In this document: piece by piece, positions 1,942 through 11,598 of the stretch
Numbering within the stretch: the stretch's first letter is position 1
Layout: every line of letters starts with the position of its first letter
Origin: Candidatus Jordarchaeia archaeon
GTDB lineage: Archaea; Asgardarchaeota; Jordiarchaeia; Jordiarchaeales; Jordiarchaeaceae
Length of the DNA: 12,854 bases
Reading direction: 5' to 3'
Assembly (NCBI GenBank): GCA_029856435.1
Contig: JAHQXB010000181.1
Coordinates: forward strand, 1-12,854
The notes under the pieces: generated by a model
Told to the model about the DNA's origin: nothing
Database searches by the model: none
Seen by the model: only the letters and a program-made list of their open reading frames with translations
Program-made: the position numbers and the translations under genes

Positions 1942-3120
1942 ATGGCAATTGTTTCAATAGTAAAAACCAATGGAAATGTTGAAGAAGGAGTTAGAAAAGC
2001 GGTAGAATTAGCAGGCGGCATTGACATCGAACCCGGCGCAAGCATCCTCATAAAACCCAACCTCAGCTGCGCCAAACCCTCCGGAAGCGGTCTAGTTACA
2101 AGCGTCGAAGTCATTTCCGCCATGGTAAAATTGGTAAAAGAGATGGGAGGTAAACCTCTGGTTGGAGACCTGCCAATCGCCGGCTGGGACCCAAAGGAAA
2201 CATACAAAATCACAGGAGTCAAAAAAGCCACAGAGGACGCCGGCGGGCAATTCATCGACTTCAGCAAAGACCAACCTGTAACCATACAGATACCAGACGC
2301 CGTAAAACTAAAAAGCGTGAAACTAGTACGCACCGCACTCACCGCCGACGCCATAATCTCCCTACCCGTCCTCAAAGCACACTTCTTCACGGGACTAACA
2401 TTATGCATTAAAAACCTAAAAGGTCTAACACTACAAGACCAAAGAACAAAAATACATGTACTTGGCCTATATGACCCTATAATCGACCTCTTTTCGGCCC
2501 TAAAAAGCAAAGTGATATTTGGACTAGTAGACGGTACAGTGGGCTGCGAATCAATAAGACCCTCCGGACCATACTACGGCCCCACCGAAGGGAAACCCAT
2601 AAAACTCGATACCCTCATAGCGGGAAAGGACATCGTGGCAGTCGACAGTGTAGCGGCAGTAACCGCAGGAATAAAGCCCAAAAGCATGAAACTACTCCAA
2701 ATCGCCTATGAGAGAGGATTAGGAGAAATAGAAGACATAGAAGTAAGAGGCGAAAAAATAAAGCCCCACAAACTCAAACAAACCCTATTCGGACGAATTA
2801 TGGGCAGCCTAAACAGTCTATGGACATCCAAAATCGCCAACCCCATAACTCACCCCCTAGTGAAGCGCCTTTTTGGTCCCCAAGTACAAAGCTTACGATC
2901 CGTAGAAAAAGAACTCCAAGAGGTTGTTCCCAGCAGAATAGTCCTAGCTGGCGAATGCGATAATTGCGGAATATGCGTCAAGAGCTGCGGCATAGGCAAC
3001 ATAAAACTGGGCAAAAACGGACCCATAATAGGCGATAAATGCATCGTCTGTCTCATATGCGTGGAAGTATGTCCGAAAGCAGCCTTGGCAGTTAAGAGGG
3101 TTGAGGAGGTTTCAGCTTAG
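1942..3120 (+). CDS. DUF362 domain protein with C-terminal 2x[4Fe-4S] ferredoxin domain
   Basis: 392 aa. DUF362 motifs ILIKPNL, SLPVLKAH, TLCIKNLKG, DIVAVDSV. Two CxxCxxCxxxC motifs (CDNCGICVKSC, CIVCLICVEVCP). AGGTGA upstream of ATG. 3' end overlaps cca by 9 nt (convergent). Confidence 0.88.
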   Translation: MAIVSIVKTNGNVEEGVRKAVELAGGIDIEPGASILIKPNLSCAKPSGSGLVTSVEVISAMVKLVKEMGGKPLVGDLPIAGWDPKETYKITGVKKATEDAGGQFIDFSKDQPVTIQIPDAVKLKSVKLVRTALTADAIISLPVLKAHFFTGLTLCIKNLKGLTLQDQRTKIHVLGLYDPIIDLFSALKSKVIFGLVDGTVGCESIRPSGPYYGPTEGKPIKLDTLIAGKDIVAVDSVAAVTAGIKPKSMKLLQIAYERGLGEIEDIEVRGEKIKPHKLKQTLFGRIMGSLNSLWTSKIANPITHPLVKRLFGPQVQSLRSVEKELQEVVPSRIVLAGECDNCGICVKSCGIGNIKLGKNGPIIGDKCIVCLICVEVCPKAALAVKRVEEVSA

Positions 3121-4518
3121 TAGCCAGTTGGGTTTTCCTAGATAGTATTTTGTTAAAAATTCGGCGAAGTCCGGATTTTGGAGGTAGATGTTGGATATTT
3201 CTGTGTTTAGGAGGATTTCGAACTTTTGAGAGATTTTTTCTGCGATGTATTTTCCGAGGCCTAGTGTTTTTATTTTGTTGCGTATTTCGTGGTCTAGTAG
3301 TTTGTCGGCTCTAGTGTGTTGGCGTAGGAGTTCTACTACCCATTTTCCGTTTTCTATTCGGGGTCCGGATACGGTTCTATCTGATTTGGTGTGTTTTTTT
3401 AGGAAGGGGGGTTGGCCGATGCTTCCAGGTGGGGGGCCCAAATGTTTGTATGTTTTGGGGATTGTTATGCTTTCAAGCTCTAGTATTAAGATTGTTTTTT
3501 CTTCTCCGGACCAGGCGTCTTTGTTGATTATTTTGAAGTCTTTGGATTCTAGGAAGCTTTTGAGGGCGTCGAGGGATTTGTAGATTTGGCCCCATAAGGT
3601 GTCTGGTGGGATTTTGGGTGTTTCGAATGTTAGGAATAGGGTGTCAGTTCCTTTTTTTCCGTGGAGGTTTTGGAGTTCTTCAGGGCTGAAGGGTTTGATT
3701 TTGTTTGGGAAAAAGAAGATTTCTCGTGGTTCTTCTAGAAAGGCTTTTGATGCTGCTTTGAATTCTCCGATTTTTTGTTTGGTTAGTGCCGCGGAGACAT
3801 TTCTTTTGGGGTCTACTGGGTCAATTACCACTAGTGGTTCAGAAAAAATTTTTTTAATTTCTTTGATATTGGTGTAGTGGTTTTCTATGTCTATGATGTG
3901 TTGTGGTTCCCATTTGATACATTCCTCGAGGAGGCGTGGGAAGGATGAGTAGTGCATCATCAAGATTTCGCACAGGTATCCAGAAAATCCTCCAATTCTT
4001 ATTTCGGCACCATAGGCATTTATTCCCATTAGAAATTGTTTCAGGAGTCTTACTTCTCTTTTTAAAGATTCGTTAAGATTTTTTTTGACGTAGGCGGTGT
4101 GAAGTGGGGTTCTGTCAACTGAGGAGACTAGTTCTGTAGCGTCGCTGATCTCGAAACTGGGAACGAAATCGACTTGGAACTCCTCTATTTCGGCACGCAG
4201 GTATGGGTGTTCGGCATATTTCTCTTTGCCTTTTCCTCCTGTTACTTTTCGCGCAATTTTTAATCCTAATTCTCCGATCTCTTTATAGGTGTAAGTTCTT
4301 GGAAAAACCATGAAAATGTCGATGTCTGGATTTGTTTTTATCCACGTGTCCTTCGCTATGGAACCCACGAGTACCGGGTTGACGGTGATGTTTAGATTCG
4401 CCGCTTCGTCCCTCACCCTTTTAATTAACTCTTGGGATAGGCGTTCTACTTTCATTCTATCTTCTGTTGAGGGTATAATCTTTTTGGATACCTCTTCGCA
4501 TACTGTTTCTAAATTCAA
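3112..4518 (-). CDS. cca: Archaeal (class I) CCA-adding enzyme / tRNA nucleotidyltransferase
   Basis: 468 aa, TTG start. Pol-beta nucleotidyltransferase motif LVGSIAKDTWIKTNPDIDIF, plus YAEHPY, VDRTPLHT, YGAEIRIGGFSGYLCE and VVIDPVDPKRNVSAA, all typical of archaeal CCA enzymes. Confidence 0.95.
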   Translation of the reverse strand: MNLETVCEEVSKKIIPSTEDRMKVERLSQELIKRVRDEAANLNITVNPVLVGSIAKDTWIKTNPDIDIFMVFPRTYTYKEIGELGLKIARKVTGGKGKEKYAEHPYLRAEIEEFQVDFVPSFEISDATELVSSVDRTPLHTAYVKKNLNESLKREVRLLKQFLMGINAYGAEIRIGGFSGYLCEILMMHYSSFPRLLEECIKWEPQHIIDIENHYTNIKEIKKIFSEPLVVIDPVDPKRNVSAALTKQKIGEFKAASKAFLEEPREIFFFPNKIKPFSPEELQNLHGKKGTDTLFLTFETPKIPPDTLWGQIYKSLDALKSFLESKDFKIINKDAWSGEEKTILILELESITIPKTYKHLGPPPGSIGQPPFLKKHTKSDRTVSGPRIENGKWVVELLRQHTRADKLLDHEIRNKIKTLGLGKYIAEKISQKFEILLNTEISNIYLQNPDFAEFLTKYYLGKPNWLLS

Positions 4519-4562
4519 GGTTCAATCCCCAAAAATGCAGGATACAAAATGAATATTTAGAC

Positions 4563-5120
4563 TTAAGGTACGCTTCTTAGTGTACTGTACTTGGGTCCCT
4601 TTGGGGTGAGTTTGCTTTCCTTTAACCTAATGGAGTTTACAGTCATGGTTCCGATTTCTAGGGTTGAAAGGTTGAAGATTAGTTTGGCTAGTTTTTCTTT
4701 ATTATGTGCGCTTTTTACTCTGGCAATAGTTGCGTGTGGGGTGTATTCTCTTCCTTCAGGTTTAAATTTGAGCTTTCTAATCTGCGTCTCTAAATCATTA
4801 TATATGCGAATAATTTCCTCTTTGCCTTTCCGGGCTCCTATCCATATATTATTTATTCTGGATAAACTGGGAAAGCAGCCTACTCCATAGAGTTCAAGTT
4901 CTATAGGTGTTAATTCAATGGTCTTCATACTTTCATAAATTTTATCTACCATTTCAGGGCTAATGTTATCCAGAAATCTGAGCGTAAAGTGAAGATTTTC
5001 TGGCTCCACCAGTTTGAGCTTTGCCCCTGTTTTTGTCAGCTCCTGTTGTATGTCGAGAATCTTTTGAATTAAACCCTTATCTTCGATATCGATTGCTATG
5101 AAAGCCCTAATGCCTTCCAG
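4563..5120 (-). CDS. thpR: RNA 2',3'-cyclic phosphodiesterase / 2'-5' RNA ligase (2H phosphoesterase), about 185 aa
   Basis: Two 2H motifs, LHFTLRF and PHATIAR, plus the C-terminal LKESKLTPKGPKY. The frame stays open upstream of the track's start (5009) and gives the conserved N-terminus (L)EGIRAFIAIDIE. There is an in-frame TAG at 5135-5133, so the best start is CTG 5120-5118, 8 nt after GGAGG. Confidence 0.92.
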   Translation of the reverse strand: MEGIRAFIAIDIEDKGLIQKILDIQQELTKTGAKLKLVEPENLHFTLRFLDNISPEMVDKIYESMKTIELTPIELELYGVGCFPSLSRINNIWIGARKGKEEIIRIYNDLETQIRKLKFKPEGREYTPHATIARVKSAHNKEKLAKLIFNLSTLEIGTMTVNSIRLKESKLTPKGPKYSTLRSVP

Positions 5121-5212
5121 AAGATATTCCTCCTACTCCAGTTTCTACAATAATCATAAATCAGATAATATTGAGATATTTGGAATTCTTTTTACCTGTA
5201 TGATATTAATGT

Positions 5213-5701
5213 CTATATTTCGTGTAAAACCTTTTTTAAAACTTTAGATAAATCTTCTACCGCTTTTTCGAGTTCGGGGGATAATGGTTCACCAAAACCT
5301 GTGGATTTAGGTTGAATACCAATGAGCGCTATGGAAACATCCATATTTCTTTTAAGATAGTTAATAAATAAGCTGAGGGGAATTCTATGGGTTGAAATTG
5401 CGAGTCCGTCGATATTTGAGGAATCCACTATTCTTATGGTTCCCGGCTGCTCACTCATGTCTGCGGCGTCTATTATAATTATGTGTGAAGGTTTAATTCT
5501 GCGCAGTTTGCCCGTGAAGTTTTCGGGAGACGCGCCGGATTCAATTATGTTGACTTTGGGGATTTTACCTTTTAGTCTTTTGCAGATTTCCATTCCAACG
5601 TAATCGTCTCCCCGAAATTCGTTTCCTACACCTATTAATACCACTTTTTTAGGTTTGTTAAGAAATTTTTTAAGCTTGTTCTCTAATTCTTCATATGTCA
5701 T
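5213..5701 (-). CDS. hycI: Hydrogenase maturation endopeptidase, HycI-like
   Basis: Motifs LIGVGNEFRGDDYVG, SPENF, IIIDAAD, ISTHRIPL and IGIQPK. ATG at 5701 preferred; the track's TTG at 5716 is an alternative. Confidence 0.88.
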   Translation of the reverse strand: MTYEELENKLKKFLNKPKKVVLIGVGNEFRGDDYVGMEICKRLKGKIPKVNIIESGASPENFTGKLRRIKPSHIIIIDAADMSEQPGTIRIVDSSNIDGLAISTHRIPLSLFINYLKRNMDVSIALIGIQPKSTGFGEPLSPELEKAVEDLSKVLKKVLHEI

Positions 5702-5763
5702 AATATCTGGCACCAATAACTGGTAATTAATGCATATAGAAAAGGTCTCTGTATAAAAATCTG

Positions 5764-6357
5764 GTGGAGCTTATGAATGAAAAAAATGATTCAGACGAGG
5801 AAAACGAAACAGAAGAGGTGGAAGAAGTAGTAGAGGAAAAGGTGACTGCCCGCCTTAAAGAAGATGCCGTGATAGTTGGGGCAGAGGATGCTCAGAAGAT
5901 TTATGAGAGAGGTTTCTTTGGGGAAATTCAAGAGGACGGAACCCTTAAATTATCCCCTGTAGAATCACTACTCCTTGTGGAAAGAAACAGATTAGAAGTG
6001 CTAAATGATAATAATGAAGTCCTAAATTTTCAGGCTCTTACAAAAATTTTTATGAAATATAATCCCAATCTCTGGTTAAAGTATTTAGTCTACAGAGATT
6101 TAAGATCTAGGGGGTATGTTGTTAGGTCTGGGTATGGGGGGAATATAGATTTTAGACTATACCCTAGGGGGGCAAAACTTGGAACTGACACTTCAAAAAG
6201 TCTCATCTACATTGTTAGTGAGGGAGCCCCGATTGGTTTAGAGGAGTTAGATAGAGTCACAAGGTTAGCGGTCTCTACAAGAAAGAGGTTAACTATGGCT
6301 GTGGTGAATCGGCAAGGGGAAGTCACGTATTATCAAGTGTCTCAAGTCTCGATTTAA
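5764..6357 (+). CDS. endA: tRNA splicing endonuclease family protein, probably the non-catalytic (structural, beta) subunit
   Basis: EndA N-domain (GFFG...LKLSPVESLLLVE) and C-domain (KYLVYRDLRSRGYVVRSG..DFRLYPRG...STRKRLTMAVVNRQGEVTYY). Against the recalled catalytic consensus, Tyr is Gly and His is Thr, while Lys is kept. The start may be ATG 5773, which follows GGTGGAG. Confidence 0.85.
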   Translation: MELMNEKNDSDEENETEEVEEVVEEKVTARLKEDAVIVGAEDAQKIYERGFFGEIQEDGTLKLSPVESLLLVERNRLEVLNDNNEVLNFQALTKIFMKYNPNLWLKYLVYRDLRSRGYVVRSGYGGNIDFRLYPRGAKLGTDTSKSLIYIVSEGAPIGLEELDRVTRLAVSTRKRLTMAVVNRQGEVTYYQVSQVSI

Positions 6358-9997: not shown

Positions 9998-10127
9998 AAT
10001 AACTTAGCTATTTGGGGATGCCCATAAGAGAATGGTGAGCAGTACGGATTTTAAATTATAGAACTAGAAGAATAAAGGAGTGGTAGCGGGATGTGGATTC
10101 GAACCACAGATCTCAGGGTTATGAGCC

Positions 10128-10154
10128 AACCGCCCTTACGGGTTTCCTTAAGGT
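10128..10154 (-). other. tRNA-iMet intron 3 (27 nt, position 29/30)
   Basis: ACCTTAAGGAAACCCGTAAGGGCGGTT. Central helix CCGC/GCGG (4 Watson-Crick pairs), bulges AG|A and TT|G, intron helix CCTTA/TAAGG. Confidence 0.92.
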
Positions 10155-10170
10155 CTGCGGGATCTCCTGA

Positions 10171-10200
10171 GTGGGCTTCCTCTTCTCTCGAAGAGTTCAT
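10171..10200 (-). other. tRNA-iMet intron 2 (30 nt, position 15/16)
   Basis: ATGAACTCTTCGAGAGAAGAGGAAGCCCAC. Central helix GGGT/GCCC, bulges AG|A and AC|T, hairpin CTCTTC-GAGA-GAAGAG with a GNRA loop. Confidence 0.82.
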
Positions 10201-10205
10201 CTACC

Positions 10206-10236
10206 TTAGACTTGGATTCTCAATTTGAGAATCCAT
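10206..10236 (-). other. tRNA-iMet intron 1 (31 nt, position 10/11)
   Basis: ATGGATTCTCAAATTGAGAATCCAAGTCTAA. Central helix GGAT/GTCT (two G-U pairs), bulges AG|A and AA|G, perfect 10-bp hairpin TGGATTCTCA-AAT-TGAGAATCCA. Confidence 0.82.
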
Positions 10237-10302
10237 CTATCCCGCTAACAAGCACACTCTTCCCGCTACGTTTTAGGACAAGGAATCTTATACTTAGAGC
10301 TT

Positions 10303-10310
10303 TATTTAAA
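10303..10310 (-). promoter_or_regulatory. Candidate TATA box for tRNA-iMet
   Basis: TTTAAATA on the minus strand, about 57 nt upstream of the mature 5' end. It implies a leader long enough to include the 10261-10268 repeat. Confidence 0.35.
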
Positions 10311-10417: not shown

Positions 10418-10527
10418 TGGTGGGCCCAACGCGATTCGAACGCGCGCCAGCGACCCTTAAAGGAATTACTCCTTTGAAGTCTTTCGGTTATCAGCCGAAC
10501 GCTCTAACCAGGCTGAGCTATGGGCCC
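10418..10527 (-). tRNA. tRNA-Ile(GAT): tRNA-Ile (GAT) with one intron; exons 10527-10481 and 10448-10418
   Basis: Joined exons give 78 nt: GGGCCCA TA GCTC AGCCTGGTTA GAGC G TTCGG CTGATAA CCGAA AGGGC GCGCG TTCGAAT CGCGT TGGGCCC A CCA. All stems pair. Anticodon at 10492-10490. CCA is encoded. Confidence 0.93.
10449..10480 (-). other. tRNA-Ile intron (32 nt, position 45/46, variable loop)
   Basis: ACTTCAAAGGAGTAATTCCTTTAAGGGTCGCT. Long intron hairpin with an AAAGGA/TCCTTT core. Central helix CGAA/GTCG has one A.G mismatch. Bulges AG|A and CT|G. Confidence 0.78.
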
Positions 10528-10655: not shown

Positions 10656-11408
10656 CCCACTTTCCGCACCCTTACTTATATTTTTATTAATTTCAAGTAC
10701 AATGGTTGAGGTATGGACGGCATCAGCAAAGTAATCGACTATCTGGGCATAGTTTCCGGCGTATGCAGGGAAATCCACCTAGCGGAAGAGATAAACCGCA
10801 TCGTGGGGTAAACGACCAGCAGAAAGTCACAACCGGCGACGCCACCCTTGCCATGGTCATTCATAAATGCCCTGGGTTTCATAAGCAACCCCCTCTACCT
10901 CTTCCCAGGATTCATGCGCAACAAACCCGTAGAACTCCTCATAAGGGAAGCCCCAAAACCAGAAGACTTCAATGACGACACCTTGGGAAGAGCCCTAGAC
11001 CGACTGTACCAGAACATCCCCACCCAGATCTTCACGCACATCGCCCTCAAAGCTGCGAAACTCGTAGGGGTCGAGAAAAAATTCCTCCATCTCGACACCA
11101 CCACCATGAGCGTCCACGGCCAGCACCAGCAACAAGAAGACGAAATGACCCCCATCACCATAACTTATGGCCGTCCCAAGAAGAACGGGCGGAACGACCT
11201 AAAACAGTTTATAGTCTCCCTCATCACCCTCTCCCGGTCAGACCTCCCCATATGGCTCGACGTCCTGAGTGGCAACTCCTCCGACAAAAACCACTTCCCA
11301 GAGGTAATAAAGAGATTCTCAAAAGAACTCGCCGCTGGAGACGGTGAAGAAGTGTACTACGTCATGGACGCCACACTATACAGTAATGACAACATTCAAG
11401 AAGTCTCC
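10656..11408 (+). pseudogene. IS1634-family transposase remnant (left part of element; two indels; 3' truncated)
   Basis: ATG 10713 gives MDGISKVIDYLGIVSGVCREIHLAEEINRIVG*. After a missing G (10805-10808) the frame reads VNDQQKVTTGDATLAMV. After a TCAT duplication (10857-10864) it reads INALGFISNPLYLFP...FNDDTLGRALDRL...HLDTTT...YGRPKK..RNDLKQF...GNSSDK...YVMDATLYS. It stops at the MITE. The left end near 10656 (CCCACTTTCCGC) is tentative. GC is visibly higher than in the flanks. Confidence 0.85.
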
Positions 11409-11598
11409 CCCCCGGCGATAGATTCGCGGGATCTTTGCTATGGTTTTTTGCCGTTGTGTTCCCTGATAATTTATGGTTTTATCGGTGTTTTTCCTCAATT
11501 TTTAATATTTCCATCCCACTTAAGTGGTGAGAAACAGTTTTGAGAACAGCCAAAAAAAGGCCCAAAAACACGAGATTTTGCGAATCTATCGCCGGGGG
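11409..11598. mobile_element. 190-bp MITE-like non-autonomous element with 19-bp perfect terminal inverted repeats
   Basis: CCCCCGGCGATAGATTCGC (11409-11427) is the exact reverse complement of GCGAATCTATCGCCGGGGG (11580-11598). AT-rich interior with no convincing ORF of its own. Internal 12-bp palindrome CCACTTAAGTGG (11516-11527). No target-site duplication visible. Confidence 0.8.

Follow-up and report, generated by a model that had tools for sequence, protein, structure and literature searches.

The closest described counterparts of the gene considered here are the multiply interrupted tRNA genes of Freyarchaeia and Atabeyarchaeia, where introns are found in 92-95% of tRNA genes, often several and up to four in each (Valentin-Alvarado et al. 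2024, PMC11291895). A preprint puts these families at ~2.2-2.4 inserts per tRNA gene, reports that tRNAscan-SE misses ~30% of inserts, mostly those in the D arm, finds a two-subunit EndA in most Asgard genomes and gives the route by which the Asgard tRNA introns arrived as unknown (Goswami et al. 2026 preprint, 10.64898/2026.10.13.758758). An initiator tRNA (iMet) gene with three introns is listed for Atabeyarchaeia-2 (PMC11291895, Supplementary Data 4). The multi-intron tRNAs of the Thermoproteales (Sugahara et al. 2008; PMC4033280, PMC4090602) likewise carry up to three bulge-helix-bulge (BHB) or relaxed-BHB introns at non-canonical positions, and the enzyme that processes them is likewise an (alpha beta)2 EndA, one that has the Crenarchaea-specific loop (PMC4033280, PMC4090602). 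The Thermoproteales, however, belong to a different phylum, and their introns are well detected by current software (preprint 10.64898/2026.10.13.758758).

The window analysed here (the whole stretch of DNA, 12,854 nt; coordinates refer to it unless a genome is named) comes from an Asgard archaeon of the genus Freyarchaeum, the genus to which the published complete Freyarchaeia genome (G005) also belongs. Every checked tRNA coordinate of Supplementary Data 4 of PMC11291895 bounds a tRNA exactly in G005. A triple-intron tRNA is ordinary in this lineage and its kind is already published. The initial annotation of the window, which held such tRNAs to be rare and found mainly in the Thermoproteales, overstated the rarity: multi-intron tRNAs are the rule in the Asgard lineage (PMC11291895; 10.64898/2026.10.13.758758). 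What looks new, and is directly testable, is a copy of one strand of the acceptor stem in the leader of the gene; the words 'leader', 'initiator' and 'iMet' have no occurrence in the preprint (10.64898/2026.10.13.758758), and PMC11291895 does not mention a leader element either.

Structure of the initiator tRNA gene

The iMet gene lies on the minus strand at 10246..10081 and is 166 nt long. Excision of precursor nt 11-41 (31 nt), 47-76 (30 nt) and 93-119 (27 nt), 88 nt altogether, yields a 78-nt product that ARAGORN reads as tRNA-Met(CAT) with a normal cloverleaf. The introns sit at 10/11, 15/16 and 29/30 in standard tRNA numbering, none of them at 37/38, and leave exons of 10, 5, 16 and 47 nt. 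Exon 1 (10237..10246) supplies tRNA positions 1-10, which are the acceptor 5' strand, U8, A9 and G10, and is separated by intron 1 (10206..10236) from exon 2 (10201..10205), a micro-exon of positions 11-15 that is invariant across the genus. Intron 2 (10171..10200) precedes exon 3 (10155..10170), which holds positions 16-29 and a D loop with two extra nucleotides; intron 3 (10128..10154) interrupts the anticodon stem, and exon 4 (10081..10127) contributes positions 30-76, comprising the CAU anticodon, the T arm, the acceptor 3' strand, A73 and CCA. All three 5' intron junctions read AG/A (the slash marks the junction). The initial annotation had described an initiator tRNA in four exons, interrupted by three non-canonical BHB-type introns, and the ARAGORN product and the register test described below bear this out; the spliced junctions that it gave, ATAG/GGTAG/TCAGG and GCAG/GGCTCAT, are confirmed as written, as is the observation of a three-intron initiator tRNA gene.

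Archaeal initiator tRNAs are distinguished by an A1:U72 pair and by an anticodon stem with three G:C pairs in a row (29-31:39-41). The product has both: A1:U72 is read from the spliced sequence and the three G:C pairs occupy exactly those positions of the anticodon stem. In G005, the other two tRNAs with a CAU anticodon and a Met annotation carry G1:C72. The CAU anticodon is presented in a 7-nt loop, CUCAUAA, on a 5-bp stem, the T arm is normal, A73 is present and CCA is encoded. The product is identical at 70 of 78 positions to the uninterrupted iMet of a sister-family genome, and 20 of the 20 cloverleaf pairs are paired in all sequences of the genus.

In its unspliced form the gene escapes standard tools, as the initial annotation had anticipated: ARAGORN calls no tRNA in the DNA, and the Rfam tRNA model does not match it even at E<=10. 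Run over the whole genome in intron mode, ARAGORN makes 6 calls, several with implausible introns of multi-hundred-nt to kb scale, and in the assembly that contains the window (G000) only six places score high enough for the cut-off of the Rfam model. The published Freyarchaeia table has 38 tRNAs and iMet is absent from it (PMC11291895); the G005 orthologue, at G005:1729308-1729446, is unlisted and lies next to a listed tRNA-Ile. The iMet gene fills a gap in the published tRNA set. Published Freyarchaeia sets are also without the tRNA-Phe described below, and the gap is inherited by the gene counts, codon-usage models and intron censuses that are built on tRNAscan-SE calls. With iMet and Phe added, the published set is still without Cys, Glu, His and several other isoacceptors. 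A search for the missing tRNAs with Atabeyarchaeia-2 genes as queries gave only Ala and Ser-GCT fragments; further heavily interrupted Freyarchaeia tRNA genes probably remain undetected.

The only tRNA of the window that Rfam detects is tRNA-Ile(GAU) (10421-10527, minus strand; 60.5 bits), with an insert of ~30-34 nt in the variable region; for its G005 orthologue the published table gives two introns (PMC11291895). Just beyond the tRNA pair is a transposase-like ORF (10848-11543, plus strand) with DUF4277 and a DDE_Tnp_1 fragment. Upstream of iMet, 57-64 nt from the mature 5' end, a TATA-like box, TTTAAATA (10303..10310, minus strand), sits in a block that is nearly invariant across all six genomes of the genus. 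If it is the promoter, as its sequence and conservation suggest, it predicts a leader of roughly 30-35 nt. A crude TATA regular expression applied to 38 tRNA upstream regions was uninformative on promoter distances.

Splice sites and splicing enzymes

A BHB site consists of a 4-bp central helix between two 3-nt bulges and is cut after the second bulge nucleotide. This cutting rule was applied to each intron and the outcome compared with shuffled introns. In the register that restores the tRNA, the central helices of intron 1 (GGAU/GUCU) and intron 3 (CCGC/GCGG) form four of four pairs; that of intron 2 has three of four in the precursor and becomes complete (GGGU/GCCC, 4/4) after removal of intron 1. 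Four pairs arise by shuffling with P ~0.03, ~0.03 and ~0.008 for introns 1, 2 and 3, and the three registers together are far beyond chance. An inner hairpin adjoins the site in intron 1 (10 bp) and in intron 3 (5 bp), and that of intron 2 (6 bp) is offset by a small internal loop. With an outer helix of 0-1 bp at all three places, the sites fall outside the strict hBHBh' definition and are relaxed HBh'-type motifs, not strict BHB. In minimum-energy folding, both the precursor and the intermediate without intron 1 show these central helices, and in the intermediate GGGU/GCCC forms. A fourth intron between two copies of AGCGGGA was considered and rejected, as the central-helix strands would be identical instead of complementary.

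These helices are built largely from nucleotides that the mature tRNA uses elsewhere. The intron 1 helix takes G5, G6 and A7 of the acceptor stem together with U8, and so cannot coexist with that stem; intron 2 borrows the 5' strand of the D stem and intron 3 its 3' strand together with the top of the anticodon stem, so that the sites of introns 2 and 3 each occupy one D-stem strand. Since the splice-site helices use mature-stem nucleotides, the precursor must adopt a fold that is not tRNA-like. The order of events is probably also constrained: the intron 2 helix needs G10 of exon 1 and lacks a pair until G10 and G11 have been joined, which argues for removal of intron 1 first.

Relaxed motifs without an outer helix, and the offset hairpin of intron 2, make cleavage depend on a broad-specificity enzyme. 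The genome encodes two full-length EndA paralogues, both matching PF01974 and PF02778. The one in the window (5764..6357, plus strand) is of the beta, non-catalytic type, with Thr aligned to the catalytic His of M. jannaschii EndA. The other (G000:C104:1178-1756) is catalytic; its best match is the A. pernix catalytic subunit 3P1Z_B (E 3e-45), and it keeps a Lys aligned to K44 of the Crenarchaea-specific loop, whose role in the specificity of the A. pernix enzyme has been described (PMC3488258). The pair fits an (alpha beta)2 enzyme of broad specificity, judged by domain content and aligned residues; this is the type of EndA that is linked with relaxed, non-canonical sites (PMC4090602). RtcB is present in the genome. 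The primary transcript would then carry three short introns, each folding into a relaxed BHB site, presumably cut by a two-subunit EndA of the (alpha beta)2 type, and the exons would be joined by RtcB.

Some side observations on these genes deserve recording. The RtcB gene (G000:C93:302-1636, minus strand) matches the full Pfam profile and has one in-frame TGA, which could be a selenocysteine codon, an intron or an error. The EndA gene of the window closes a cluster of tRNA-maturation genes (3112-6357) that lies close to both tRNAs: a CCA-adding enzyme (3112-4518, minus strand), a LigT/ThpR-type 2H phosphoesterase (4563-5009, minus strand) of only 148 aa in which the N-terminal part of the profile is not covered, and a HycI-type protease (5213-5716, minus strand) precede it. 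In the published annotation of Atabeyarchaeia-1 an EndA gene is likewise two genes from a hydrogenase maturation protease gene.

The leader copy of the acceptor strand

The 23 nt that precede the mature 5' end (10247..10269, minus strand) form a conserved leader block. Its first 9 nt (10269..10261), GTAGCGGGA, are a copy of the acceptor 5' strand and can form 9 bp with the acceptor 3' strand plus A73 and C74; we refer to this copy as the decoy. The 23 nt are almost invariant in six genomes (the first 15 at 15/15), and the spacer upstream of them and the introns vary. The duplex of the leader with the 3' end has a predicted energy of -17.6 kcal/mol vs -13.1 for the true strand, the best value of 38 tRNAs. 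In the corresponding ranking of the 38 G005 tRNAs iMet (-17.6) is followed by Thr-CGT (-16.5) and then, at a distance, by the next tRNA (-10.7 kcal/mol). iMet and Thr-CGT are the only tRNAs in this ranking whose first intron lies at or before position 10, and the first splice site of Thr-CGT uses acceptor nt 3-6. For the unspliced precursors, leader included, the fold with the decoy is ahead of the fold with the true acceptor stem by 3.7-10.5 kcal/mol in six of six, and with the decoy paired the central helix of intron 1 forms in most of the six.

A blind scan of G000 for a CCA-ended 3' strand, a 5' strand pairing with it and a leader bearing a copy gave 45 matches. The real tRNAs among them are iMet, Thr-CGT and an unannotated tRNA-Phe(GAA) (G000:C27:14641-14802, minus strand), which has a leader decoy and three introns (at 9/10, in the anticodon arm and at ~53/54); the central helix of the first is perfect and consists of acceptor nt 4-7. 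None of the three decoys varies within the genus, whereas the spacers beside them do. A decoy is present in three of three tRNAs whose splice-site helix uses the acceptor vs none of 37 others, and it is absent from iMet genes without the 10/11 intron. The invariance of acceptor stems and decoys alike leaves no covariation within any one gene of the genus; the support for the decoy is that of three genes with three different sequences. A search for the tRNA-Phe outside the genus matched only an unrelated tRNA (in G009), and the Atabeyarchaeia tables contain no tRNA with a first intron before position 13.

Two further genes offer observations of their own. In G005 the tRNA-Phe orthologue (G005:C1:1547576-1547793) has a fourth intron, in the T loop. 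Introns 2 and 3 of tRNA-Phe are near-identical and change in parallel from species to species, which, as sequence patterns go, suggests that introns within a gene have been copied or have undergone gene conversion; a reading of the intervening DNA between repeats as a fourth intron was rejected for tRNA-Phe too, the strands being likewise identical. The iMet of Atabeyarchaeia-1 (L097; G021:C1, about 463.8 kb) spans 213 nt and is absent from the published table. An apparent fifth insert lies within the 3' acceptor strand or beside it; a strict BHB register could not be fitted to this insert by hand. Right after CCA the trailer of the gene repeats the 3' strand (CCCCCGCTAC); G041 and G031 have neither the fifth insert nor the trailer repeat. 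This gene may be a mirror case of the leader decoy.

What the decoy might do can be outlined. While exon 1 is engaged in the intron 1 site, the leader copy probably pairs with the 3' acceptor strand. It would serve as a placeholder through which the 3' strand stays in a helix and the first exon, 10 nt long, stays attached to the rest of the molecule; once splicing is done, the true acceptor stem would form and the leader be removed. The decoy probably helps the excision of the first intron. Even with all three introns out, secondary-structure energy alone favours the decoy helix over the true acceptor stem by ~3.5 kcal/mol, so that removal of the leader needs tertiary folding or capture by RNase P.

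RNA data for the locus consist of a single 200-nt metatranscriptome contig, which comes from a close relative. It covers 10059-10253 with all three introns unspliced, ends near the borders of the gene and stops 7 nt into the leader, short of the decoy; it is a weak hint of an unspliced precursor. Spliced junctions were not seen in RNA, in two runs that matched a small part of the window and in contigs that are blind to rare or short mature forms.

The serious alternative accepts the gene and its introns as real and denies the leader repeat a part in splicing. The repeat would then be a leftover duplication from the insertion of an early intron (how the Asgard tRNA introns arrived being unknown; preprint 10.64898/2026.10.13.758758) or some other element; it could act as promoter-proximal DNA or mask the 3' end. 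Transcription of the decoy is not seen, the RNA contig having stopped short of it, covariation within the genus is absent, with helix 1 never varying, and the persistence of a favoured decoy helix after splicing sits uneasily with a role in splicing alone. A leftover duplication does not, however, readily account for decoys that stay invariant beside spacers carrying substitutions and indels, nor for three decoys each matching its own acceptor strand with pairing extended to N73. The spacers of 3, 14 and 17 nt are unlike the product of one insertion mechanism, and the restriction of decoys to genes whose splice-site helix uses acceptor nucleotides (the 3/3 vs 0/37 given above) speaks for a link with splicing. 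We regard a leader repeat without a splicing role as doubtful, if a good deal short of negligible. The reading that we prefer, and hold with considerable confidence, is that of a functional and sole iMet gene with three relaxed-BHB introns cut by EndA, intron 1 first, and with a leader decoy that aids the processing of intron 1.

A more general proposition, that in these archaea any tRNA intron whose splice helix borrows from the acceptor comes with a flanking decoy copy that pairs to N73 during splicing, we would give an even chance. The decoy would then be a cis-acting aid to archaeal tRNA splicing of a sort not described before, and would explain how introns so close to the end of a tRNA persist. 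If confirmed, the leader decoy would provide a testable rule for where introns settle near tRNA ends. The decoy signature, if confirmed, would also find tRNA genes that other tools miss, the tRNA-Phe recovered by the blind scan being a case in point.

Conservation, intron history and comparison with known systems

The initiator locus is single in G000, an assembly that is 97.8% complete (blastn-short and a pattern search for anticodon arms), and single in each of five further genomes of the genus, one of them closed. No second initiator-type anticodon arm was found by blastn-short and pattern searches among these six genomes, and the suggestion in the initial annotation that this might be the sole initiator tRNA gene stands, at one locus per genome. 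(The scan for CAU anticodon arms also met a CRISPR-like array in G000:C173, around 2970-3150 on the plus strand, with the repeat GTCTCAATTCCACTATGGTTCGATTAAAAC.)

Across the six orthologues compensatory changes occur at 28:42, 49:65 and 52:62 and every cloverleaf pair is kept; the exons are better conserved than the introns. The processing structure is 97% paired across orthologues: three pairs of the intron 1 hairpin show compensatory double changes in the genus, and in the central helices exchanges of G-C and G-U are the only variation. By this pattern of substitution the gene is under selection as a tRNA, and a pseudogene is very unlikely.

Two more drastic alternatives can be weighed against these data. 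The inserts might not be endonuclease introns at all, and be retained expansions, sequences removed by another route or assembly artefacts. Relaxed motifs lacking an outer helix would suit such a view; it can hardly be right, given that the same inserts appear in independent assemblies, including the closed and long-read-validated genome (PMC11291895), that the exact cutting register restores a canonical tRNA in three cases of three, and that a tRNA could not work with inserts left in its D and anticodon stems. That the locus is a decaying pseudogene and initiation relies on another tRNA, as silence from the standard tools and the lack of spliced RNA might suggest, is scarcely credible in the face of one locus per genome with no other initiator-type arm, G1:C72 in the other two Met-called CAU tRNAs, exons more conserved than introns, three stem pairs altered on both sides and still paired, and a conserved promoter-like box.

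If the gene is the functional initiator that we take it to be, synthesis of every protein in the organism begins with a tRNA that must be spliced three times, with a 5-nt exon released in one of these events. The gene is a stringent natural substrate on which to see how endonuclease and ligase handle crowded, non-canonical sites.

Each of the six genomes of the genus carries introns 1 and 2. Intron 3 occurs in four of them (G000, G001, G003 and G004) and is exactly absent from G005, from G002 and from the sister family, in which iMet is uninterrupted or has one intron, in the T loop. Intron 3 is probably a recent gain, which is the simpler reading. The 10/11 intron is seen only in this genus among the genomes searched. 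A blastn-short search of the genome for source copies of the three introns gave nothing below E 0.05 besides the introns themselves.

The Atabeyarchaeia-2 iMet is also occupied at 15/16 and 29/30, and its 15/16 intron ends in the same GCCCAC. By the present reading that gene (L073; G031:C1:470714-470904, minus strand) has four inserts, at 15/16, 29/30, beside the anticodon and in the T loop (191 - 113 = 78 nt); the published three omit the one at 15/16. Position 29/30 of iMet is occupied in three distant lineages (L014 in G020, L073 in G031 and 10128-10154 of the window) by introns whose bodies are unrelated and whose central-helix strand, GCGG, is identical. As far as comparison of these sequences goes, the recurrence speaks for one of two histories: an ancient intron that was lost in places, or a site at which introns land preferentially.

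With the published multi-intron tRNAs of Freyarchaeia and Atabeyarchaeia the gene shares lineage, phenomenon, non-canonical sites, D-arm inserts of the kind missed by tRNAscan-SE and a two-subunit EndA. It differs from that set in being unlisted for Freyarchaeia, in having a 10/11 intron that, among the genomes searched, is seen only in the genus, and in its leader copy. For the leader copy the nearest parallel is in split and permuted tRNAs (the halves of Nanoarchaeum equitans, the permuted iMet of Thermofilum pendens and examples from Cyanidioschyzon merolae), in which a flank likewise pairs with another part of the transcript and lets endonuclease and ligase act on an otherwise disrupted tRNA (PMC4090602). 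There, the flanks pair mutually and form the BHB site itself. The iMet leader, in contrast, duplicates a strand of an exon and has the 3' acceptor strand as its partner; the leader forms no cut site, and frees, and would tether, the strand from which a cut site is made.
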